NCBI GenBank assembly: GCA_963977445.1
Contig: CAXBPH010000200.1
Span: 1-13,173 of the forward strand
Length of the DNA: 13,173 bases
Origin: an uncultured bacterium
GTDB taxonomy: Bacteria > Hydrogenedentota > Hydrogenedentia > Hydrogenedentales > JAEUWI01
Direction of reading: 5' to 3'
In this document: positions 1 to 13,173 of the stretch, piece by piece
Numbering within the stretch: the first letter of the stretch is position 1
Layout: each line of letters opens with the position of its first letter
Notes under the pieces: generated by a model
What the model was told of the DNA's origin: nothing
The model's input: the letters and a program-made list of their open reading frames with translations, nothing else
Database searches by the model: none
Translations under genes and position numbers: made by a program

Positions 1-592
1 AATGGATGGCGGTGAAGGTTCCCCAGAAGTTGCCGGTCCGCCCGCCGCGCCAGTGCCACACGGGCCGGACACGCACGGTATTGCGAACTCCAATGTGCCA
101 ATGGCGACAAAAAGCCGTTTGGACGAGGCCGGCATGGGCCTGGAGGACGCAACGTGGCGGGTGCTCCGTTATAGCGACCTTCGCAGCCTCGTTCCGGGCA
201 ACGATCCTCGTCCGCCCGGCAGGGAAATTGAGCTTCACATTACGGGCAACATGGAGCGTTACCTGTGGGGCTTCGACGGCAAGAAGTTTTCCGAGGCGGA
301 ACCCATCGTGTTTATTCACGGCGAAAGGCTGCGCCTGACACTCGTGAACGACACCATGATGAATCATCCCATTCACCTCCACGGGATGTTCATGGAGCTC
401 GATAATGGCTCGGGCCAATTCAATCCAAGAAAACATACCGCGAATGTGAAGCCGGCCGAACGCATCTCCCTGGACATAACTGCCGACGCTCTCGGCAACT
501 GGGCCTTCCACTGCCATATCCTGTATCACATGGAAGCGGGTATGTTTCGCGTCGTGTCCGTCCGGGAAGCAAAAGAAGGGATTACGTCATGA
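1..592 (+). CDS. copA: Copper-resistance multicopper oxidase CopA family, C-terminal part (5' end outside window)
   Basis: Frame from nt 2 has the C-terminal MCO Cu motifs MNHPIHLHGM and WAFHCHILYHMEAGMFRVV, plus the CopA-typical RELxLHxTGNMERYxW-like and RxRLTLVNDTMM segments. Stop overlaps the copB start (ATGA, 589-592). Confidence 0.95.
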   Translation, partial: MDGGEGSPEVAGPPAAPVPHGPDTHGIANSNVPMATKSRLDEAGMGLEDATWRVLRYSDLRSLVPGNDPRPPGREIELHITGNMERYLWGFDGKKFSEAEPIVFIHGERLRLTLVNDTMMNHPIHLHGMFMELDNGSGQFNPRKHTANVKPAERISLDITADALGNWAFHCHILYHMEAGMFRVVSVREAKEGITS

Positions 593-1482
593 AAAAAGAA
601 TCCTGCTACACTAGGCGATTCGCTGTGGTCACAGCGATTCTATTTCATTGTTGGATGCTCGAATCGAACGCTCACGGGCAAGAAGCCGTCATGCGGATGA
701 ACGGGCACGGACAGATATCGGCGGAGAAACCGGCCACGCCGGAGAATGTACCAACGGCTACCGTCTCTACCAATGCCGAGACAAAGCTACACGTCGGAAA
801 CATTGGAAATGATTGGCCGCCCCCGGTGGAAGACTCGCAGCGATTCGCTTCGTTCCGCTTCGATCGACTCGAATACGCGCTGGGCAAGAACGCAGACATT
901 TTACGGTGGGACGCTACGGGGTGGTATGGCGGTGACTATAACCGGTTTTGGTTGAAGTCAGAAGGTGACTGGAAAATTTCCAATGATGGCGCTGGTGTTG
1001 TCGAAGTCCAGGCATTGTATGGCCGATTCATTGCCCGCTATTGGGATCTACAGCTAGGGCTTCGTCACGACTATCTTTTCGGGCCGGGAGCCAATCGTTC
1101 GCGGACGTTTGCGGTTATCGGCCTCCAAGGGCTCGCGCCCTACCGGTTTGAGCTCGAGCCTGCGCTGTTCATAAGCCAGGATGGTGACCTGTCAGCGCGC
1201 TTGACGGCATCCTATGACCTGTTGCTCACTCAACGGCTAATACTTCAGCCGCGGGCGGACATGGATGTAGCCCTGCAATCGGTGGATGAATTCGGGGTCG
1301 GAAAAGGGTTCAATAGCCTTGACCTTGGTATGCGACTGCGCTATGAGGTCAAACGCGAATTCGCGCCTTACGTGGGCATCCAATGGAGTCGCACGTTCGG
1401 TGAAACCGCAGCATTGGCCAGGCGAGGCGGTGAATCTACGGAAAATGTCGAAGTCCTCTTCGGCCTCAGCATCCGATTCTAA
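589..1482 (+). CDS. copB: Copper resistance protein B (outer-membrane CopB family)
   Basis: CopB-typical segments FDRLEY, WYGGDYNRFWLKSEG, EVQALY, GLQGLAPYRFE, YDLLLTQRLILQP, GMRLRYEVKREFAPYVG. C-terminal Phe. Translationally coupled to copA. Confidence 0.95.
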   Translation: MKKESCYTRRFAVVTAILFHCWMLESNAHGQEAVMRMNGHGQISAEKPATPENVPTATVSTNAETKLHVGNIGNDWPPPVEDSQRFASFRFDRLEYALGKNADILRWDATGWYGGDYNRFWLKSEGDWKISNDGAGVVEVQALYGRFIARYWDLQLGLRHDYLFGPGANRSRTFAVIGLQGLAPYRFELEPALFISQDGDLSARLTASYDLLLTQRLILQPRADMDVALQSVDEFGVGKGFNSLDLGMRLRYEVKREFAPYVGIQWSRTFGETAALARRGGESTENVEVLFGLSIRF

Positions 1483-3531: not shown

Positions 3532-6500
3532 CTACTGTGTGCTCAACGACATCAGGTAGGCGACAAGATTAGACATGCCTTCCAGGCTGACCGCTTCTTC
3601 CAGGCCTTCGGGCATGAGAGAGAGCTCTGCGCTTTCCGTCGACTCAATGTTGACGCGGAGGATGGTGTCCGCTTCCCCGTTGGCCCGTTTCACCGTAACA
3701 CTGGTGGCCGTTTCGCTGGAAATGATTCCGCTGTAGGTTTCCCAGTCTTTCGTTTCTACGGTGAAATTCACATAGGCCGGGTTAATTTCCCGGTTGGGAT
3801 CGAGGACGTTCAGCAGAATGGCTTCGGCACCCCGCGCACCAATCGAACCAAGATCGGGTCCAACGGCGTATCCTTTGCCCTCGAGCTGGTGACACTTGCT
3901 GCACTGTTCGATGAAGAGGGCACGACCCTTTTCGATGTCACCCGCCATCGTAAGCGCCGGGCGGTATTTCTCTACCACCTCGTCACGGGCGGTGGGGGTC
4001 CGTGTACCTAAGAGGGCGATGGCCTTTTCCTTGATAGCGTCGTCGGGATAGTTCACCAGGAAATGGACCCGGTTGGAATCCAGGGCCTTGGGCGAAATCC
4101 GACCACCTTCGATGGCGTTGAGGGCCAGCGTGGTCCAACCTTTGCGGGAAAACAGCGTTTCCACCGCCTGCGCCCGGACGCCGGGACTGAAGGAGTCGAA
4201 GGGGGCGATGATCGCTTCGGCACCGCTGTCGACGCCATAACTGCCGACGGTCTTGATGGCGGCAATCTGGACGTCACTCGTGGCGGCGCTTGCCAGTACT
4301 TCAGCGAGCAGGGGGATAGATTCATCCGCCGGGGCGAAAGAAAGATTCTTAATCGCTTCGATGCGGTCTTCGGCTTTTGCCTCGCTGTTTTCGGCGGTTG
4401 TGCGGGCACTGGCGAGCATGTCCGTCAGCAATCCTTGGGCCAGGGCACTCTGGGCGAGTACTTCGGGAGCAAGGGTGCCCTGCCCACCGAGACGCATGCC
4501 ATCGATCATGCCGCGAACAGCAGCCTGGGCCAGTTTGGCATCGTCACCCGTGAGGGAATCGAGCTTGGCGACGGCAATAGCCAGGGTTTCTTTGGAGCCC
4601 GTGGCACCCGCATATTTGGCCAGTTCCTGAACCAGGGCCGGGGCTTTTTCGTTGCTCCGGAACGTGGCATCAGCGAGCACCAGTTGAAGGGCTTCATCAG
4701 CGCCAATATAGAGGGAGCTCTTGGCCGCCAACTGAATCCACGTGTCGTCCATATTCTTCATGAGAAGCTGGGCGAGGGCTTCGTTACGTTTTTCACCCGT
4801 TGCGGCACCGAGGCTGAAGGCCAACTGGTACTGAACCTGGGGTGTGGGATCAGACTCCAGGGCAATGACGCTGTCGAGCAAGGATGCGTTGTCCGCCAGG
4901 AAGGCTTCGGAGAGGCGAATGGCGTGTTCCCGTACTTTTGGAGAAGGGTCTTTCAGCGCCGGGGCTACATCGTCAGCGGACAAGGCGCCAAGGCCGTCCA
5001 GGGCGTAGAGTGCACGGATGCGGCCTTCCGGGCGATGACCGGAAGTTACCAGCGCCTTCAGGGCCGGCACGGCACCCTGGTCCTGCTGTTCGTAGATCAA
5101 GCGTGCTGCGGTTTCCCGGTGCCAGCCATTGTCGTGATCCAGGGTGGCCACCAGCTCAGCGGTAGTTGCGTCGCCCAAGCGGGGCTGGGCAGGTTGCGTG
5201 AAGCCATCGGGAATAACCCGGTAGATGCGACCGCGGTCACGGCCACTCGTGAGGTCCAGGTGCTTCTTGATAAGGGGAGGGAGGCTCAGGGGATGTTCAA
5301 TAATCTCGCGATACATATCCATGACGTAGAGCGTGCCATCGGGCGCATTCGCATATTGAACCGGTCGGAACCAGGTGTCGGTGGAACGAAGAAACTCGGT
5401 GTTCTGGTCGGCCCGATCAGCCACCAGGAGAATATTGTCTTCATTGATAGTCTTGCGGTGAACCAACTGGCTGCCCGCGTCACCGATAAAGGCGTTGCCA
5501 TAGTATTCTGCCGGCCAGGCATTACCGCGATAGATGGTCACGCCCGTGGCACCGGTAAAGTAGCCGGCCGGTGTGCCGCCACCTTCAACTATTCCGGGAA
5601 CGATTCCCTTCACACGAAGGCGGGTGCGCACGATACGCCAGGGTTCAATCGGGCTGATGCGATAGACCGTAGCGGCCGCACCGTCGGAGGCGATACTCAT
5701 GCGGGAGCCGGGAGCGGCCAGGTAGGGGTTGCGCGCCAGATAGCTGTCGTCAAACATGACCTGCTGGATGTGGTCACTGTTGGAGCTTACAAAGCGACGG
5801 CCCCAGGGGTCTATGCTCATACCATGCTGCCCGCCGCCGCTGATGGGAGAGAGGGTGCGTGATTTGGGTTCAATGGTAAAGTCCCGTCCACGAAGGGAGA
5901 GGGCCAGGGCACCGGGGTCATTTGCGGGTTTTACATCGGCACCCGAGGTGCTGGTGGCGCCATAGATTTTATTGTCCAGCCCCCACTTGAGGGTGTTCAT
6001 CAGGCCCTGAACGTTTTTCAGGCTGAAACCGGTGTACACCACTTCACGGTGGTCGGCGACGCCATCACCCGTCGTGTCTTTGCAATAAAGAATGTCCGGT
6101 GGAACGCCAATAAAGACACCGCCGTCGTAGCAGGTGACCGCCGTGGGCCAGGCCAGATTGTCGACATAGATGGATCGCTTGTCGTAGTGGCCATCGCCGT
6201 CCGTATCTTCGAGGCGCGACACGAGACCGGCGTTTTCATCGTACTGCTCGGAGTAGCCGCGCATTTCCACCACAAATAGGCCACCCTGTTCGTCGAAGGC
6301 GATGGCAATGGGGTCGGCGACGAGGGGCTCGGCGGCCACCTGATCCACCTTGAAGCCCGCATGGACCTCAAAAGAGCCCAGCGCGTCTTTCGGCGAAAGT
6401 GCCTCAAAACGGGGAAGCTCGGCAGCATAGTCTCGGTCAAGGCTGTCATCCACGTCGTCTTGAGCGATACTCGGGGTAGCCCCCAAGGCGATTACGCAGG

Positions 6501-6552
6501 CACCTAGACCTACGCGTCTGCCGAGTCTGCCTATATCGTTCCACTGTATCAT
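3532..6552 (-). CDS. PVC-type heme-binding CxxCH protein (putative dehydrogenase beta-propeller + HEAT repeats + C-terminal cytochrome c), 1006 aa
   Basis: Signal peptide, then family segments AAEPLVADPIAIAFD, LEDTDGDG, WGLDNKIY, FRPVQYANAPDGTLYVMDMYREIIEHP, RGRIYRV. HEAT-like NGWHRETAARL and DPSPKVREHAIRL. Heme motif CSKCH (3903-3889), VGPDL and SLMPEGLE (distal Met). Start moved from 6642 to ATG 6552, which has AAGGAG 7 nt upstream. Confidence 0.92.
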   Translation of the reverse strand: MIQWNDIGRLGRRVGLGACVIALGATPSIAQDDVDDSLDRDYAAELPRFEALSPKDALGSFEVHAGFKVDQVAAEPLVADPIAIAFDEQGGLFVVEMRGYSEQYDENAGLVSRLEDTDGDGHYDKRSIYVDNLAWPTAVTCYDGGVFIGVPPDILYCKDTTGDGVADHREVVYTGFSLKNVQGLMNTLKWGLDNKIYGATSTSGADVKPANDPGALALSLRGRDFTIEPKSRTLSPISGGGQHGMSIDPWGRRFVSSNSDHIQQVMFDDSYLARNPYLAAPGSRMSIASDGAAATVYRISPIEPWRIVRTRLRVKGIVPGIVEGGGTPAGYFTGATGVTIYRGNAWPAEYYGNAFIGDAGSQLVHRKTINEDNILLVADRADQNTEFLRSTDTWFRPVQYANAPDGTLYVMDMYREIIEHPLSLPPLIKKHLDLTSGRDRGRIYRVIPDGFTQPAQPRLGDATTAELVATLDHDNGWHRETAARLIYEQQDQGAVPALKALVTSGHRPEGRIRALYALDGLGALSADDVAPALKDPSPKVREHAIRLSEAFLADNASLLDSVIALESDPTPQVQYQLAFSLGAATGEKRNEALAQLLMKNMDDTWIQLAAKSSLYIGADEALQLVLADATFRSNEKAPALVQELAKYAGATGSKETLAIAVAKLDSLTGDDAKLAQAAVRGMIDGMRLGGQGTLAPEVLAQSALAQGLLTDMLASARTTAENSEAKAEDRIEAIKNLSFAPADESIPLLAEVLASAATSDVQIAAIKTVGSYGVDSGAEAIIAPFDSFSPGVRAQAVETLFSRKGWTTLALNAIEGGRISPKALDSNRVHFLVNYPDDAIKEKAIALLGTRTPTARDEVVEKYRPALTMAGDIEKGRALFIEQCSKCHQLEGKGYAVGPDLGSIGARGAEAILLNVLDPNREINPAYVNFTVETKDWETYSGIISSETATSVTVKRANGEADTILRVNIESTESAELSLMPEGLEEAVSLEGMSNLVAYLMSLSTQ

Positions 6553-6667
6553 GTTGTACTCCTTGCTTCGGGTTTCAGGGTAACTACGCCACGATGAGGC
6601 GCGTGGATCGCCGTGCAGGACATCGTCGGGAGACGGAATCACGGCGATTCAGGGTTTCTGTAATGAA

Positions 6668-7003: not shown

Positions 7004-7726
7004 ATGATACGTTCCCTGCGTAATTTAACCATTGCCGCCGTCACGGTGACGTGCAGCGGCGCATTTGCGGGCTCCATCACGGGTAAAATCGTGTATGAAG
7101 GTTCCGTGCCCGCCTCTATCACCAAGCCCATCGACACCAGCGGCGACCCCCAATGCGCTGCCCACGCCGATGGAAAGGGTCCAGTCAATGAGGTGCTCGT
7201 TCTGGGTCCAGGCCAGACCATGGCCAATATCGTGGTCAAGGTGATTAAGGGACTTCCCGAAGGCAAGACGTGGGATGCGCCCACCGAAGCTGCGGAAATG
7301 ACCCAGAAGGGTTGCCAATATTCACCCCACGTGCTGGCTATCCAGTTGGGCCAGAAGGTCAAGGTATTGAACCCCGATGGCATCCTGCACAACGTGAATT
7401 GCCAGCCCAAGTTAAACAAAGCGGCCAACAGAGCCATGCCCAAGAATCTCACCGAGCTGGAATTCGACTTTGATCAGATCGAAGACCCCTTCCGCTTCAA
7501 GTGTGACGTACACCCCTGGATGATGGCCTATTGCACCGTTATTGCCCATCCCTTCTTCGACGTGACTGAAGTTGACGGTGTGTTCACCATCGACGGCCTC
7601 GAGCCGGGTGAATATGAAATCGAAGCCTGGCACGAACGCCTGGGCACCCAGACCGCGACGGTAACCGTGACGGCCGACAAGGCGGGTGAAGCCGACTTTA
7701 CCTTCTCCCGGCCTTCCCGTAACTGA
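7004..7726 (+). CDS. Secreted cupredoxin-domain protein (type 1 Cu site) embedded in a carboxypeptidase-regulatory-like beta-sandwich
   Basis: Sec signal ending AFA. GSITGKI start, QKGCQYSPHV, NPDGILHNV (H129), CDVHPWM (C167, H170, M173), and DGVFTIDGLEPGEYEIEAWHERLG. AGGAG RBS at 6989-6993. Confidence 0.85.
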   Translation: MIRSLRNLTIAAVTVTCSGAFAGSITGKIVYEGSVPASITKPIDTSGDPQCAAHADGKGPVNEVLVLGPGQTMANIVVKVIKGLPEGKTWDAPTEAAEMTQKGCQYSPHVLAIQLGQKVKVLNPDGILHNVNCQPKLNKAANRAMPKNLTELEFDFDQIEDPFRFKCDVHPWMMAYCTVIAHPFFDVTEVDGVFTIDGLEPGEYEIEAWHERLGTQTATVTVTADKAGEADFTFSRPSRN

Positions 7727-7802: not shown

Positions 7803-9545
7803 ATGGACCCATCAACTGGGAATGCAGTCACGCGCGGGGCCTTCGCGCGTTTTTTCGTATCCACCGACCACAAGGTCGTCGCCATTCAATATGTGGTGAC
7901 GGCCCTCGTGATGTTGTTCGTGGGTTTCTTGTTCATGCTGCTCATGCGCTGGCAGCTTGCCTATCCCTATCAATCATTGCCCTTCATCGGCGGCTGGTTT
8001 GCCGATGACAACCCCGTTATGCCCGGCGGGGTGATTACGGCGGGCTTTTACAACCAGCTTGGGGCCATGCACGGCACCATCATGATTTTCCTCGCCGTGG
8101 TGCCGCTGGTCGCTGGTGGTTTTGGCACCTATCTGGTCCCCCTGATGATCGGCGCAAAGGGCCTTGCCTTTCCCCGTCTCAGTAAGCTCGGCTACTGGTG
8201 CTACCTGGGCGGTGCCTTCATTCTCCTCGGCAGCTTTTTTCTTCCCGGTGGCGCGGCCAATTCCGGCTGGACGGCCTATCCGCCCCTATCGGTCATCGAA
8301 AACGCAGGCCAGACCACCTGGCTCATTGGCGTGTCCTTCGTCTATTTTTCTTCCCTGTTGTTGAGCATTAATATCCTCACGACTATTGTTCAATTGCGCA
8401 CCGAAGGGCTCAGCTTCATGCGGCTGCCCTTTTTCGTGTGGAGTCAGCTCGTTACAAGTTTATTGCTCCTGTTGGCGTTCCCTCCCCTGGCGGCTGCTGC
8501 GGTTATGCAGTTGATGGACCGGGTAGGCGGCACCAGTTTTTTCCTTCCCAGTGGCCTGGTGATCAGTGGGGAAGCCCTTGATGTGAGTGGGGGAGGCAGC
8601 GCCCTTTTGTGGCAGCACCTGTTCTGGTTCCTGGGCCATCCCGAGGTCTATGTGTTGTTGTTGCCCGCCTTCGGAATCGTTGCCGAGGTGATTGTCGTCA
8701 ATACACGCAAACCTCTTTTCGGCTATAAGGGCATGGTTTACGCCACACTGTTTCTGGGGCTTATGTCCATGCTTGTCTGGGCGCACCATATGCTCCTTAC
8801 CGGCATGGGCACGGCCATGAGTGAATTCTTTCAGATCACGACCATCATCATCTCCCTGCCCTCCGTCATTGTGGCCTCTTCTCTGGTGGTCTCGCTGTGG
8901 GGCGGCTCCATACGCTTTACGGTGCCCATGCTCTACGCCCTGGCCTTCCTGCCCATGTTTGCCATCGGTGGTCTCACCGGCCTCCCCCTGGCGATGTCGG
9001 CGACCAACATCATGCTTCACGACACCTACTACGTGATTGGGCACTTTCACTATATCGTCGCGCCGGGAACCCTCTTTGCCGTCTTCGCGGGCATCTACCA
9101 TTGGTACCCCAAGGTGACCGGCAGAAGAATGAACGACGTGCTCGGCCATCTTCATTTCTGGCCGACCCTGATTTGTATGAACGGTATTTTCTCCCACCTG
9201 ATTCTTCAGGGCTTTGCCGGTGTATCCCGTCGTCTCTATGATGGGGGTGAAACCTACGCCCACGGTGCGGAAGTATTTGGACTCAACTCCGGGGCGACCT
9301 GGGCCGCATTTGGCCTGCTGGTGGTCCAGATTTTCTTCATCATCAACTTTTTTTACAGCATGAAATGGGGTCGAAAAGTGGACAGCAATCCCTGGAAGGC
9401 GACCTCACTGGAATGGGCTGCGCCGTCACCGCCCTTGCCGGGAATTAATTTCGAATCGCCTCCAATCGCCTATCGCGATTCCATGACCTATAGCGAAGTG
9501 GGTGCCGATAAAGATTACACCCCACAATGGGAGGCGAACTCATGA
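7803..9545 (+). CDS. ctaD: Heme-copper oxidase subunit I, A-family-like (CoxN-like), with atypical proton-channel residues
   Basis: STDHK, MHG (H90), GWTAYPP, WFLGHPEVY (H279, E281, Y283), WAHH (H328, H329), HDTYYVIGHFH (H414, H416), GVSRR. CoxN-like GTSFFLP...GGGSALLWQHLFW insert and NPWKATSLEW tail. Confidence 0.96.
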   Translation: MDPSTGNAVTRGAFARFFVSTDHKVVAIQYVVTALVMLFVGFLFMLLMRWQLAYPYQSLPFIGGWFADDNPVMPGGVITAGFYNQLGAMHGTIMIFLAVVPLVAGGFGTYLVPLMIGAKGLAFPRLSKLGYWCYLGGAFILLGSFFLPGGAANSGWTAYPPLSVIENAGQTTWLIGVSFVYFSSLLLSINILTTIVQLRTEGLSFMRLPFFVWSQLVTSLLLLLAFPPLAAAAVMQLMDRVGGTSFFLPSGLVISGEALDVSGGGSALLWQHLFWFLGHPEVYVLLLPAFGIVAEVIVVNTRKPLFGYKGMVYATLFLGLMSMLVWAHHMLLTGMGTAMSEFFQITTIIISLPSVIVASSLVVSLWGGSIRFTVPMLYALAFLPMFAIGGLTGLPLAMSATNIMLHDTYYVIGHFHYIVAPGTLFAVFAGIYHWYPKVTGRRMNDVLGHLHFWPTLICMNGIFSHLILQGFAGVSRRLYDGGETYAHGAEVFGLNSGATWAAFGLLVVQIFFIINFFYSMKWGRKVDSNPWKATSLEWAAPSPPLPGINFESPPIAYRDSMTYSEVGADKDYTPQWEANS

Positions 9546-10132
9546 GCATGCCTTTCACGACAGAACAGCGGCCGGATACGGGACTCTACAACGCCAAGTT
9601 GGGCATGTGGTTTTTCCTGGCGGCGGAAGCCATGTTTTTCGGCGCCCTGTTTTCCAGTTATGCCTTCCTGAGGACCGCGGCCGAAGCGTGGCCTGCGGGC
9701 TCGGAAATACTGCCCGTTGGCGTGGCCCTGCTCACGAGCGTGTCCATGATCCTCGCAGCGGTGTTCAGTGCGAAGGGGTGGAGCGATTTGCGGCGGGAAG
9801 ATCGGGGTCGCCATGCCGCATGGATGTGGGGTGCCATTATCGCAGGCATCGTGGCGGTTGTCTGCATTGCCATCGGCCATAGTCTGGAAGCCCGGGAAGG
9901 CATGCACGCCGCTACCAACACCTTCTACGCCTGCTGGTATCTTATCACCGGAGTGCAACAAGCCCATGTTGTCGCCGCCATTGCGTACACGCTTTTTCTT
10001 GGTCTGCCGGGAACTACCCTTCGCAAAACAGATCCCCAGCGTTATCGCAATCGCGTTGAATGCCTGGGACTTTTCTGGCAGTTTCTGGCACTTATGTGGA
10101 TCGCAACCTTCGCGTGCTTCTACGTGTTCTAG
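9542..10132 (+). CDS. ctaE: Cytochrome c oxidase subunit III (short, about 5-TM form), divergent
   Basis: LGMWFFLAAEAMFFGALFSSY with the conserved Glu, NTFYACWYLITG, and VECLGLFWQFLALMWI. ATG 9542 overlaps the subunit I stop (ATGA) with GGAGG upstream, so it is preferred over 9527. Confidence 0.88.
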   Translation: MSMPFTTEQRPDTGLYNAKLGMWFFLAAEAMFFGALFSSYAFLRTAAEAWPAGSEILPVGVALLTSVSMILAAVFSAKGWSDLRREDRGRHAAWMWGAIIAGIVAVVCIAIGHSLEAREGMHAATNTFYACWYLITGVQQAHVVAAIAYTLFLGLPGTTLRKTDPQRYRNRVECLGLFWQFLALMWIATFACFYVF

Positions 10133-10144
10133 GAGTCAACGACT

Positions 10145-10351
10145 ATGTCCCTGAAAGCCTTTCACATACTCATCATTTTCGTGTCCATCGTCGCATGCTG
10201 CGCCTATGGCATGTGGGGCGTGATTACCTTCATGCGTGAAGGTTCGGTGCTCTCCCTGCTTTCGGGAAGCGCATTGCTCGCCGGTGGTCTGGCCTTGCTT
10301 ATGCACGGTGTTATTTTCTACAAACATGCGGAGGAGGACCCATGGCTTTAA
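10145..10351 (+). CDS. Small two-helix membrane protein in the oxidase operon (68 aa)
   Basis: AGGAG RBS at 10131-10135, two hydrophobic segments, tight packing between ctaE and the next ORF. Confidence 0.75.
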   Translation: MSLKAFHILIIFVSIVACCAYGMWGVITFMREGSVLSLLSGSALLAGGLALLMHGVIFYKHAEEDPWL

Positions 10352-10611
10352 AGATTTTCACAACGGCGGTGCTGTTCCTCATGGCCGAAGGTGCTTTCGC
10401 TTGCGCCACCTGTTCCGGTACGGCCGACGCGCCTCAGACCCACGGCATGAATGCGGGGATACTCACCCTCTTTGGCGTGTTGTGCCTCGTGGGGCTGGTC
10501 TTCGCCACCTTCGTGGGAAGTATCGCCTGGCGCATTGCCCGATACAGCAACGCAACACAACAACACGACGACACCCCGGTAGTGCCGGTCATGACAACCC
10601 TGGAGTTCTGA
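10342..10611 (+). CDS. Small exported CxxC protein with one TM helix (89 aa)
   Basis: GGAGGAGG RBS, signal peptide ending AFA, then CATC, GMNAGIL and a hydrophobic helix. Overlaps the upstream ORF and ends 4 nt before subunit II. Confidence 0.78.
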   Translation: MALKIFTTAVLFLMAEGAFACATCSGTADAPQTHGMNAGILTLFGVLCLVGLVFATFVGSIAWRIARYSNATQQHDDTPVVPVMTTLEF

Positions 10612-10615
10612 CGTC

Positions 10616-11440
10616 ATGTCCTTTTATCCCTTTAGCTATTTTCCCGAACTTGCCTCGGAACACGGTGCCACCATTGATCGCCTTATGATCATCGTCTGCG
10701 TGTTCATGACCCTGATCTTTCTGGGGTGGCTGGCCTTCTTCATCTATACCCTCTTGCGCTTCCGGGGTGGAAAAAATCCCAGTGCACAGCCGGAAGGTAT
10801 CCGGGGTCGCTGGGTCTACGGCCTGGCCGTCGGCATCCTGGTGGTAGAGCTCTATATCCACTTTGGACTCGGTGGTGGCGTTGGGGCGTCCCAATTGAGC
10901 GAAATCAACCCCACCGAAGAAACGGTGCAGGTGCGCATCGTGGCCCAGCAGTTTGCCTGGAATATTCACTATCCTGGTGCCGATGGCATTTTCGGCGTCA
11001 CGGCCCCAGAGTTTTTCAATGATCAGAGCAATCCCGTAGGCATTGATCCCGACGACGAACATGGGAAAGACGACATTGTCACCTTCAAACAGCTCTTTCT
11101 GCCGGTCAACAAAGCCGTGCGCATTGAGCTAAGCTCTAAGGACGTAATCCACAGCTTCTTCTTGCCCGAATTCCGCATCAAGCAGGACGTCATTCCCGGC
11201 ATGGAAATTCCCGTGACCTTTGTGCCCACCATGACCACCGACGAGTTCCGGGAAATCAAAGGGGACGAAGCACGAGACTTCGAAATTGCCTGCGCCCAGC
11301 TCTGCGGTGTCACCCACTACACCATGAAGGGTATGGTACGAATTCTCGACCAGGAAGGCTTTGATGCCTGGCTGGTAGAAAAGGCCCCCAAAGAAGGTGC
11401 AGGAGAGGGAGACGATTTCTGGGCGGACGATTCGCTGTAG
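10616..11440 (+). CDS. ctaC: Cytochrome c oxidase subunit II (CuA, CoxM-like, no fused heme c)
   Basis: PELASEHGATID, two TM helices, QQFAWNIHYPGADGIFG, SKDVIHSF (H179), KQDVIPG, CAQLCGVTHYTM (C226, Q228, C230, H234, M237). GGAG RBS. Confidence 0.95.
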   Translation: MSFYPFSYFPELASEHGATIDRLMIIVCVFMTLIFLGWLAFFIYTLLRFRGGKNPSAQPEGIRGRWVYGLAVGILVVELYIHFGLGGGVGASQLSEINPTEETVQVRIVAQQFAWNIHYPGADGIFGVTAPEFFNDQSNPVGIDPDDEHGKDDIVTFKQLFLPVNKAVRIELSSKDVIHSFFLPEFRIKQDVIPGMEIPVTFVPTMTTDEFREIKGDEARDFEIACAQLCGVTHYTMKGMVRILDQEGFDAWLVEKAPKEGAGEGDDFWADDSL

Positions 11441-11526: not shown

Positions 11527-13173
11527 TTACTTTACGGGCAACCATTGAGCGGCATCCCCAATCACGTAGCCGCCGGCATCGGCCGTGCTAATCAGGTCGA
11601 CGTATCCGCTGTTGCCCCCGTCAAATTCGTAGATTCCCAGCGACACAAAGGGTGCCAGCTCGCCCGCCTTTTTTCGCTGATTGATCCGATGTTCCGTTGC
11701 GCCGTCCTTGTGGTGGACCACATAGAGGGCATTCGTCGCCCGGTTGCTGTGGGGGGAATAGGATACCCGCACTTCGTAGCGCCCGGCTTCAGGTAAGGTG
11801 ACGCGATAGCGTATATAGGTCGCCGGGTCGCCCACCTGACTGTCGTGGACGTAGCCGTATCCCACGTAGGGCTGCATATCGCCCGACTCCCGCCAATTGC
11901 CAACAAGTTCCGCTGTTTCGGTGTCCATCACGATACCCGAAAGTTTGCGAAGGGCAATGAAGTCCGCAATGGTGTCTTCGATATGGAGGATGGCATGTTG
12001 CGCCTTCAACGTGTCTTGGAGCGACGTGATATCGATAGCCTGCACCGATGTATTTCCCCGGATAGCCATGGAAGCGGCCACACCCGCCGCCTGGCCAATT
12101 ATCATATACTGGGGTTCCATGCGCATGCTGGAATAGGCCACGTGTGAGGCGGAGAAGGTGCAGCCCACCAGGAGGTTGGTGCATTCCGATGGCTGGGGCA
12201 CAAAGGACCGATAGGACATGTCGTAGGGGCGCACACCGACCTGCATATCACCCTCATTGATTACCGAAGGTATGCCGGCCTCCCAGAGTGGGGACGCCGT
12301 CACGGCGAAGCGCTGCACGTTGTGGGAATCGGAATTGTAGGAGCCCATGCCGATGCTGTCTTCCTTGAAACGCTCGATCTGTAAATCTTTCTGCGTCGTG
12401 ACAAAGCTGCCAACCATCCGGCGCGCTTCCCGCACATAGAGCTGGTGCGGCCAGTTATCGGTATCGACAAATTCGTCTTTCGCCAGCCCCCAGCTCCGGG
12501 CCTCGTTGCGTAAGGCGTCCGGGATGCCGGGGTCATTGGCGAGGAAGTAAAAAAAGCCCTTTACATAGCGCTCATGTTCTTCCCAGATACGATCCTGCTC
12601 ATCGTAAGTGGCATCGGGATAATTCCAGCTACCCCCAATGAAATCCGTGGAAATGGGACCGTTATTGTTGGTGTCCGTCTTGCCCTTGGGCAGGCGAAAG
12701 GGGTGGCACAGTTGCTCGAAGGTGAGGTCGGGTTTCGCGGCGATATAGCGTCGAAGCAGCTCCCATGCAGCGGGATCATAGCCGTCGGGCTTGGGCCAGG
12801 GGACCATATTATCGCTGTCCTGGGTCATGCAAAGGCGGAAGTTGTAGCCTTGCACTTTTTTATCGGCATCGCCGGTCTGCTTGTCGTCTCGCTCCTGAAC
12901 CAGGGGGAGAAGGGAACCTGTTTCGTCGTAAGGATTCACGGGTACGGAAAATTGGTGTTTTGCACTGTATTCGATGTGGCCTGCCAGGGATTCACCGTAT
13001 TTGGATTGTCCTTCACGGCCCCAGGTATAGGAAATCTTGGCCAGTGGCAGGAAGTCCCCTTCATAGGAGCAGTCGATGAATACCGATGCCGTAAAGGTAC
13101 TTTCGTTCAGCAGGGTGATGGATTGGATGGATGTCCCGTCTTTTTTTACCGAAGCGAGTCGGCTGCCGAAATA
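11527..13173 (-). CDS. FAD-dependent oxidoreductase (FAD_oxidored / xanthan-lyase-associated type) with C-terminal golvesin/CBM-like domain; 5' end outside window
   Basis: Frame is open to the window edge, upstream of the listed 12939 start: FIDCSYEGD, GREGQSKYGESLAG. Then QGYNFRLC, KTDTNN, LYVREARRMVG, SYNSDSH, SASHVAYSSMRMEP, GQAAGVAA. Tail GRYEVRVSYSPHSNRATNA...GYVIGDAAQW. Confidence 0.92.
   Translation of the reverse strand, partial: YFGSRLASVKKDGTSIQSITLLNESTFTASVFIDCSYEGDFLPLAKISYTWGREGQSKYGESLAGHIEYSAKHQFSVPVNPYDETGSLLPLVQERDDKQTGDADKKVQGYNFRLCMTQDSDNMVPWPKPDGYDPAAWELLRRYIAAKPDLTFEQLCHPFRLPKGKTDTNNNGPISTDFIGGSWNYPDATYDEQDRIWEEHERYVKGFFYFLANDPGIPDALRNEARSWGLAKDEFVDTDNWPHQLYVREARRMVGSFVTTQKDLQIERFKEDSIGMGSYNSDSHNVQRFAVTASPLWEAGIPSVINEGDMQVGVRPYDMSYRSFVPQPSECTNLLVGCTFSASHVAYSSMRMEPQYMIIGQAAGVAASMAIRGNTSVQAIDITSLQDTLKAQHAILHIEDTIADFIALRKLSGIVMDTETAELVGNWRESGDMQPYVGYGYVHDSQVGDPATYIRYRVTLPEAGRYEVRVSYSPHSNRATNALYVVHHKDGATEHRINQRKKAGELAPFVSLGIYEFDGGNSGYVDLISTADAGGYVIGDAAQWLPVK

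Follow-up and report, generated by a model that had tools for sequence, protein, structure and literature searches.

An A-family heme-copper oxidase of Hydrogenedentota lacking the key residues of both canonical proton-uptake channels

How does a heme-copper oxidase take up protons when the key residues of both canonical proton-uptake channels have been replaced? The question is raised by coxI, a gene at positions 7803 to 9545 (plus strand) of a 13,173-nucleotide stretch of DNA (hereafter, the window; contig CAXBPH010000200.1 of GenBank assembly GCA_963977445.1) from an uncultured bacterium of the Hydrogenedentota. An earlier note, made from the sequence of the window by itself, had described the product as an A-family-like oxidase without the key residues of either the D-channel or the K-channel and had deduced from this a different proton or ion route. 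The double loss is real, but it is the product of two separate events that differ in age and spread; most of the mechanistic information lies in what the note had missed, namely the changes that accompany these losses in subunits II and III and a putative hydrophobic plug in helix IV.

The coxI open reading frame is unbroken and encodes a protein of 580 amino acids with 12 predicted transmembrane (TM) helices, which matches Pfam COX1 (PF00115) with an E value of 1.6e-125. The HMMER alignment with subunit I of the Paracoccus denitrificans enzyme (1ar1_A; E value of 4.6e-112, about 37 to 38% identity) is free of gaps across the channel regions and runs through identical anchors (GA..AFPRL..L.YW and P....WGG). 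In the AlphaFold2 model, obtained from a 66-sequence alignment (pLDDT 90.3, pTM 0.91), twelve long helices are present, and the best Foldseek matches of this model are aa3 oxidases (TMq 0.83 to 0.86, TMt up to 0.95), with A-type enzymes filling all of the top 50 positions; the fold matches that of the aa3 oxidases of P. denitrificans and Rhodobacter sphaeroides with a TMq of 0.85 and a TMt of 0.91 to 0.93. The six His ligands H90, H279, H328, H329, H414, and H416 correspond to Paracoccus H94, H276, H325, H326, H411, and H413, and the stretch GHPEVY (residues 278 to 283) contains E281 and Y283, equivalent to Paracoccus E278 and Y280. Furthermore, H406 and D407 of the Mg site (Paracoccus H403 and D404) and the pair R476/R477 (Paracoccus R473/R474) are kept, and the residue calls were confirmed at the codon level. 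CoxI is therefore a member of the A family, by sequence and by predicted fold, with the 12-TM COX1 fold, the six His residues, and the helix VI Tyr expected of it, and the Glu of its helix VI XGHPEV motif is that of subtype A1; judged from its residues, it has the active site of an O2 reductase. Different from A1 aa3 oxidases, its score against the NCBIfam equivalog TIGR02891 (CtaD/CoxA) is 539.8 bits, below the cut-off of 670.75. The sequence does not place it in the B family, the match to subunit I of ba3 having E values of 2e-5 to 1e-3 compared to 1e-112 for A-type subunits, and the altered active site that, according to PMC11214002, marks the nitric oxide reductases (NOR) of the superfamily (cNOR, qNOR, eNOR, sNOR, gNOR, nNOR, and bNOR), with no Tyr, Glu ligands to FeB, or a replaced CuB His, is not found, the Tyr and the three CuB His residues all being present. 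The alignment and the codons thus agree with the note on the unbroken frame and the intact metal ligands, Tyr, Glu, Arg pair, and Mg-site His and Asp, and Pfam, 1ar1_A, and Foldseek concur with its A-family assignment.

The former entry of the D-channel lies at the end of helix II, in the following loop, and at the start of helix III (positions 8127 to 8192, with T109, M115, K119, G120, S127, K128, and G130). Here, GGFGTY aligns over Paracoccus GGFGNY, which gives the replacement of N113 by T109, and GAKGLAFPRLSKLGYW aligns over GAPDMAFPRLNNLSYW, which gives the replacements of D124 by G120, N131 by S127, and S134 by G130. The canonical series of entry Asp, Asn, and Ser residues leading to the helix VI Glu is thus absent, and G196 is replaced as well, by Leu. 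In the K-channel, the relevant part of helix VI (positions 8631 to 8702, with L277, H279, E281, Y283, A294, E295, and N300) shows FGIVAEV over FGIISHV, i.e., S291 replaced by A294 and H292 by E295, and the corresponding face of helix VIII (positions 8853 to 8894, with S351, S354, V357 at the Lys position, A358, S359, S360, and S364) shows LPSVIVASS...WGG over VPTGIKVFS...WGG, i.e., K354 replaced by V357 and T351, conservatively, by S354. The helix VIII Lys and Thr, the helix VI Ser, and the subunit II Glu that together define a canonical K-channel are therefore not found. The earlier note had named the replaced residues in bovine numbering (D91, N80, N98, and S101; K319 and S255), which are the equivalents of the Paracoccus residues at internally constant offsets (33, 36, and 35), and all of the six replacements were reproduced. 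Misalignment was considered as their cause and rejected, because the alignment has no gap between identical anchors and the MAFFT alignments agree with it.

Among the representative relatives (up to 150, from clusters at 50% identity), the Paracoccus entry residues are widely kept (D124 in 113/130, N113 in 106/129, N131 in 110/130, and S134 in 111/133), and K354 is a Lys in 87/142. Both positions are covered in 123 of the representative clusters, and 12 of these have neither an acidic residue (D/E) at the D124 position nor K354, so that the double loss is recurrent in sequence space. Closer to the window, in the best 120 homologues (62 to 91% identity) together with the query, the residue at position 120 is Asp in 79, Asn in 28, Gly in 13, and Ser in 1; position 357 is without Lys (I, L, V, or M) in 121/121, E295 is a Glu in 121/121, and position 294 is mostly Ala.

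The order of the two losses was read from a FastTree phylogeny (LG+gamma) of 303 subunit I sequences and 505 columns, comprising the best 120 homologues and the query, 103 near-full-length cluster representatives out of the 150 returned, and the subunit I sequences of 79 out of 80 loci (L066 was omitted, its gene being split). The sequences without the K-channel Lys form a clade of 180 tips (support 1.0), 127 of which keep the D-channel Asp. Nested within it is a D-less clade of 44 tips (support 1.0), which holds all of the non-Asp members of the family and the named members of which, four proteins and two loci, are all Hydrogenedentota. The K-less, D-intact relatives belong to metagenome-assembled genomes (MAGs) labelled Acidobacteriota/Vicinamibacterales, Verrucomicrobiota, Planctomycetota, Marinimicrobia, Ignavibacteriota, and others. 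The loss of the Lys is clearly the older event and extends over several phyla, and the loss of the D-channel occurred later, as a single event, in the 44-tip clade. The nearest genomic relatives of the window are the Hydrogenedentota MAG contigs L001 and L047, with CoxI 91% identical and an identical gene order, and the dN/dS ratios of coxI (Nei-Gojobori) are 0.040 between the window and L001, 0.045 between the window and L047, and 0.024 between L001 and L047. Private or relaxed substitutions were rejected in view of these ratios and of the co-substitutions found throughout the clade. The homologues do share the substitutions, as the note had asked to be checked, and since these are clade-wide and under strong purifying selection, its idea of a noncanonical proton route is a fair inference; none of the four options that it proposed is proven. 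Several proteins of this A-family clade (P0008, P0032, P0037, P0109, P0111, P0114, and P0116) appear in public records under the name "cbb3-type cytochrome c oxidase subunit I," which is the wrong family name for them.

The features that go with the older event emerged from the comparison of 166 members of the K-less clade with 87 canonical sequences having both D and K. S351 is present in 166/166 K-less sequences, the canonical ones having Ala in 76/87; S364 is typical of the K-less clade; and Asn is found at position 299 in 152/166 and at position 300 in 165/166, the CoxI of the window having V299. E295 was examined as a specific substitute for the Lys, and this idea is weakened by the finding that Glu or Asp at that position is common in K-containing relatives (SETK, SDSK, and SESK). 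Position 277, four residues before the Glu (positions 8631 to 8633), is Leu in 166/166 K-less sequences and Phe (60) or Tyr (21) in the 87 canonical ones. According to PMC4256069, the O2 channel of A-type enzymes is constricted by two residues, of which this is one, and it is smaller in ba3, a likeness to the protein of the window, and it is possible that Leu at this constriction represents an adaptation to low O2. With respect to Paracoccus, CoxI also carries a 12-residue insertion, SGLVISGEALDV, in the periplasmic loop that joins helices V and VI (about residues 250 to 261, positions 8550 to 8585); an insertion of about this length is typical of the K-less clade, the canonical sequences being gapped in 67 to 72 of 87 at three of its columns.

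Subunit II, encoded by coxII (positions 10616 to 11440, plus strand), has a complete set of CuA ligands (H179, C226, C230, H234, and M237), as expected of a cytochrome c oxidase rather than of a quinol oxidase, and it resembles A-type subunits II (E values of 1e-13 to 1e-15) far more than that of ba3 (E value of 0.05). In the alignments with the structures of Thermus caa3 and Rhodobacter subunit II, the Glu at the K-channel entry is replaced by A71. An additional intramembrane Glu, E78, occurs in TM2, seven residues deeper than the classical entry Glu. We could pair coxI with coxII in 70 loci carrying both genes. All of the 24 K-containing loci have the classical TM2 entry Glu (E78 in Paracoccus numbering) and lack an acidic residue seven positions further in, whereas the deeper Glu is found in 43 of the 46 K-less loci, the exceptions being L067, L068, and L080, which represent other K-less lineages. 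It is likewise present in 121/121 CoxII homologues of the window protein, in which the entry position holds Glu or Asp in 91, Ala in 26, and Val in 4; the Ala and Val forms carry the motif RWVY.LA, as do the window, L001, and L047. Furthermore, the CuA loop reads C-A-Q-L-C in 121/121 of these proteins, with Gln in 43/46 K-less loci compared to Glu in 19/24 canonical ones. In the window, Q228 (CAQLCG, positions 11297 to 11299) replaces the CuA-loop Glu by which subunit II provides the third ligand of the Mg/Mn site, and the Mg site may hence be altered or absent, although H406 and D407 of CoxI are kept. The CuA loop of ba3 also has a Gln.

For the younger event, the 42 non-Asp sequences among the best 120 homologues plus the query were compared with the 79 Asp-bearing sister sequences. 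The latter are nearly uniform at the channel entry (N109 in 79/79, Q115 in 77/79, D120 in 79/79, N127 in 79/79, M128 in 76/79, and S130 in 78/79), whereas in the D-less clade the former key positions vary (T, N, S, G, or I at 109; G, N, or S at 120; S, N, or G at 127), as expected after a loss of function. M115 and G130, different from these positions, are fixed in 42/42, position 128 is Lys or Arg in 38/42, and position 119 is often Arg or Lys, mainly in the G120 subgroup, which is that of the window. On the channel face of helix IV (positions 8343 to 8372), S183, S184, and N190 are retained, and two residues are specific to the clade, Y181 (42/42, compared to I in 77/79 sister sequences) and L187 (42/42, compared to G in 78/79). 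The Paracoccus counterpart of L187 is G196, which is flanked by S192/S193 and N199; helical periodicity would place L187 on the channel face, within a 120-degree arc together with the Ser pair and the Asn, where it could act as a hydrophobic plug of the D-channel. In helix VIII, the residues beside the Lys position are smaller and more polar in the D-less clade, with A/G358 (L in 73/79 sister sequences) and S360 (A in 65/79).

On the periplasmic (P) side, above heme a3 (positions 9006 to 9023, with N402, M404, H406, and D407), the Asp that is D399 in Paracoccus and D in 79/79 sister sequences is replaced by N402 in 41/42 D-less sequences; this residue presumably adjoins the heme a3 propionate region. 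Position 404, a His in 55/79 sister sequences, is non-polar in the D-less clade, and A397 is found in 42/42, compared to G in 77/79. A397 and N402 recur in three independent lineages lacking the D-entry (P0130, P0139, and P0179) and in L067, which has a Glu at the Asp position and no K-channel Lys; several other D-less lineages retain Asp at position 402. It is possible that D-channel loss and the P-side change D399N are recurrently coupled, a link that is unproven.

Changes are also seen in subunit III, which in canonical enzymes supports proton uptake through the D-channel. CoxIII (positions 9542 to 10132, plus strand; 196 amino acids) is a short form with five TM helices, matching Pfam COX3 and a CyoC/CtaE-like NCBIfam family. 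When its 35 closest homologues (46 to 100% identity, the named Hydrogenedentota included) were compared with the next 81, four of intermediate rank being omitted, we noticed that N65, T66, S72, S73, T75, K109, E112, Y113, H139, H180, and D183, each near-invariant (76 to 81 of 81) in the latter group, have been lost in the former.

On these grounds, we tentatively propose, with somewhat less than even confidence, that the oxidase is an O2 reductase that works without a D-channel and takes up protons through a Lys-less, Ser/Glu-lined path of the K type, converging on the design of the B family. In a first step, in the old, multi-phylum clade, the K-channel Lys gave way to a hydrophobic residue, and a new invariant Glu appeared in TM2 of subunit II, seven residues above the classical entry Glu; together with S351, S354, S364, E295, and N299/N300 of CoxI, it would line a path of hydroxyl and carboxylate groups. 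In a second step, restricted to the Hydrogenedentota clade, the D-channel would have been abandoned: the entry Asp and the Asn residues were lost and their positions left to drift, basic residues appeared at the old mouth, Leu took the place of the presumably channel-facing Gly that separates the Ser pair from the Asn gate, subunit III dropped many of its conserved polar residues, and helix VIII became smaller and more polar beside the Lys position (A358 and S360). All protons would then enter by the remodelled K-type path, as in the B-family ba3 oxidase, in which the D-channel is missing and a hydroxyl-lined path without Lys is accompanied by a subunit II Glu. L187 would close the D-channel, E78 of CoxII and E295 of CoxI would line the working path, and, if this path carries all protons, a lower or absent pumping ratio would follow, possibly with a better performance at low O2. 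Among the options put forward in the earlier note, the sequence evidence favours this B-like Ser/Glu channel, and we found nothing in favour of another coupling ion and nothing with a bearing on sodium coupling.

Several observations weigh against this proposal. With respect to the channel pattern of the B family, the D-entry is lost and a Lys-less K-type face is present, yet E281 is kept, and a purely K-type, single-channel model leaves its retention unexplained, since the B family has lost this Glu. Not only E281 but also Y30, S183, S184, and N190 of the upper D-channel are conserved across the D-less clade. The D-less clade has, in addition, lost the Glu at the classical K-channel entry of subunit II (now A71), an odd loss if the K-type path took over all of the traffic, and the replacement of D402 by Asn beside the heme a3 propionate region fits poorly. 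The plug at L187, the orientation of CoxII E78 toward helix VIII, and a continuous water chain rest on helical periodicity and known structures, and the D-less groups of CoxII and CoxIII were set by motif or similarity rank, with contig linkage to a D-less CoxI in the window, L001, and L047 only. No biochemically characterised protein was found among the identifiable members of the K-less clade. The retention of E281 and of the upper D-channel, the loss of the entry Glu, and the change at position 402 keep two other explanations alive.

The first is that the enzyme is a non-electrogenic O2 scavenger with no cytoplasmic proton entry, which would draw its protons from the periplasm, as cNOR does and as has been reported for D-entry mutants of aa3, and would detoxify O2 without conserving energy. 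We regard it as unlikely, although much of the above could be read in its terms: the three classical residues of the cytoplasmic (N) side are gone (G120, V357, and A71 of CoxII), basic residues stand at the old D mouth (K/R128 in 38/42, and R/K119 mainly in the G subgroup), the region above heme a3 is changed throughout the clade (D402N in 41/42, H404 lost), and the retained E281 would suit a Glu fed from above. D132 mutants of aa3, moreover, show reversed respiratory control. However, we found no new conserved acidic pathway on the P side, the sole candidate, E166, having been rejected because Paracoccus has a Glu there too; the invariant intramembrane and N-side carboxylates E295 and CoxII E78 would be left with no job; and the K-type face has gained polarity, rather than lost it, through the helix VIII changes of the D-less clade. 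A broader version, in which there is no cytoplasmic inlet and the gating Glu is fed either from the periplasm or by a new lateral route, would make the enzyme the first non-electrogenic A-family O2 reductase or an independent, living intermediate between the A and B families; this, too, appears improbable.

The second explanation, to which we give somewhat less credit, is that the D-channel still functions and pumps with a different mouth, either because the small residues T109, G120, S127, and G130 open a water-filled vestibule or because another subunit, a lipid, or a fatty acid supplies a carboxylate in trans. The conservation of E281, Y30, S183, S184, and N190 is what would be expected in this case, the residues now found at the entry are smaller than the original ones in three of four cases, and D-entry mutants are rescued by added fatty acids. 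Against it stand L187, which replaces a near-invariant Gly of the channel face (42/42, compared to G in 78/79), the Lys or Arg at the mouth, and the drift of positions 109, 120, and 127 within the clade. No new N-side acid that could act in trans was found in CoxIII or in the two small proteins of the operon; CoxIII has instead lost conserved polar residues, and the small proteins are also present in D-intact relatives and are hence not specific to the loss of the D-channel.

A main substrate other than O2, such as NO, is improbable. In its favour, the closest solved relative of the cupredoxin-like protein encoded next to coxI is 5fc9_A, presumably a Nitrosopumilus protein, the annotation of which goes no further than a blue (type 1) copper domain. 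PMC11214002 further reports that NOR families repeatedly arose from O2-reductase ancestors with altered channels; however, the NOR families described there alter the CuB His residues and the helix VI Tyr, and all of these are present in CoxI. No denitrification genes were found among the Pfam and NCBIfam profile matches in the 13-kb window, and the preference of the earlier note for O2 over NO, founded on the retained Tyr, is upheld by an active site with both the CuB His residues and the Tyr of an O2 reductase. As for a decaying or non-functional paralogue, which might come to mind because single D124 or K354 mutants of canonical enzymes are nearly inactive, dN/dS ratios of 0.024 to 0.045, a 44-tip clade with invariant co-substitutions, an intact operon with start/stop overlaps, and the intact metal ligands of CoxI and CoxII make it hardly credible.

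A comparison with known systems shows which features are shared and which are distinctive. In common with canonical aa3 oxidases, the enzyme has the six His ligands, the Glu and Tyr of HPEVY, the Arg pair, the His and Asp of the Mg site, a CuA-bearing subunit II, and a subunit III; different from them, the D-entry residues, the K-channel Lys, S291, and both the entry Glu and the Mg-ligand Glu of subunit II are replaced. With the ba3 oxidase of Thermus thermophilus it would share, in the working sense, the absence of a D-channel, the Lys-less hydroxyl path with a subunit II Glu, the CuA-loop Gln, and the smaller residue at the O2-channel constriction; unlike ba3, it has retained the Glu of helix VI, a subunit II with two TM helices, and a subunit III. 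The K-less, D-intact sisters in the MAGs of Acidobacteriota, Verrucomicrobiota, Planctomycetota, Marinimicrobia, and Ignavibacteriota (52 to 66% identity, identical operon order) have A294, E295, S351, and S354 as well as E78 and Q228 of CoxII, and their loci also encode both small proteins and the cupredoxin-like protein; they differ in retaining the N/D/N/S entry residues, G187, D402, the CoxII entry Glu, and the polar set of CoxIII. The lack of N-side proton channels is a trait that PMC11214002 also ascribes to cNOR, a non-electrogenic member of the heme-copper superfamily. Unlike the enzyme of the window, cNOR contains an FeB liganded by Glu, works without a Tyr cofactor, and includes a cytochrome c subunit; it gave no sequence match to CoxI at an E value of 0.001 or lower.

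With regard to novelty, which the earlier note had made depend on no published family having this pattern, half of the pattern is already in print. As described in 10.1101/2020.03.01.968255 and PMC8239418, A-family oxidases of acidophilic Fe(II) oxidisers and their relatives lack the Lys, with Ile or a different hydrophobic residue in place of K354 and a substitution of E78 in COX2, and the K-channel has been lost repeatedly in archaea. According to the same publications, by Degli Esposti and co-workers, these enzymes are A2-type and their D-channel is "essentially conserved"; compared by this published description only, they share with the window the loss of the Lys and differ from it in keeping the D-channel. 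A transition from the A to the B family through loss of the D-channel has been proposed, according to PMC11214002. In the literature that we searched, by contrast, we did not find an A-family or bacterial A1 clade combining both losses with a retained helix VI Glu, a deeper subunit II Glu that tracks the loss of the Lys, or a correlated erosion of subunit III, although key reviews could hold any of the three.

The genes of the oxidase form a tight operon on the plus strand, in the order cupredoxin-like protein, CoxI, CoxIII, two small membrane proteins, and CuA-bearing CoxII. The coxI stop codon overlaps the coxIII ATG as ATGA; an upstream ATG at 9527 is also open, the 196-amino-acid form being the protein in the database record. 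The first gene (positions 7004 to 7726) encodes a secreted, cupredoxin-like protein of 240 amino acids with H129, C167, H170, and M173, a short C-x2-H-x2-M loop, and a C-terminal CarboxypepD_reg-like beta-sandwich. Its match to Pfam Copper-bind is below the cut-off (E value of 0.0066), and its sole solved relative is the type 1 copper protein mentioned above (E value of 0.0026, with the HN and C..HPW motifs aligned). Homologues occur in the fetched flanks of subunit I in 44/80 loci, canonical K-containing ones included, and the protein is likely an electron donor or partner of the oxidase. The small proteins, encoded by overlapping reading frames, one of 68 amino acids with two TM helices (positions 10145 to 10351, plus strand) and one of 89 amino acids with a CATCSG motif (positions 10342 to 10611, plus strand), matched no Pfam family; they have homologues at the matching operon position in 27/80 and 30/80 loci, respectively, across phyla, and may be extra subunits or Cu-assembly factors.

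Outside the operon, a PVC-type heme-binding CxxCH protein of 1,036 amino acids (positions 3532 to 6642, minus strand), composed of DUF7133, HEAT, and C-terminal cytochrome c regions, is transcribed divergently from the oxidase genes and is syntenic in L047 and L001; by inference only, it is possibly a dehydrogenase-cytochrome that gives electrons to the oxidase. At the left edge of the window (positions 2 to 1482, plus strand), a copA-type multicopper oxidase gene, only the 3' part of which is included, precedes copB, and its stop codon overlaps the copB start. Both are copper-resistance genes and lie 5 kb from the operon of a copper-dependent oxidase. At the other end (positions 11527 to 13173, minus strand), a gene for an FAD-dependent oxidoreductase domain fused to a Golvesin C-terminal domain leaves the window.

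Proton routing and gating in heme-copper oxidases are still debated, and the evidence derives mostly from engineered mutants in which the enzyme is crippled. The clade described here amounts to a natural two-step experiment, the product of which has been kept under strong selection, and offers an ordered series of natural constructs in which the role of the Glu without a D-channel, and the ability of a K-type path alone to support pumping in an A-type scaffold, may be addressed. It also bears on whether channel loss accompanies adaptation to low O2, a link that has been suggested for the way in which the B family arose, and, should the enzyme be an intermediate between the two families, its working parts would be readable residue by residue along a resolved tree. 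A further consequence concerns the annotation of metagenomes, in which the genes in question are labelled "cytochrome c oxidase" or even "cbb3-type" and are taken as a sign of ordinary, energy-conserving aerobic respiration in the Hydrogenedentota.

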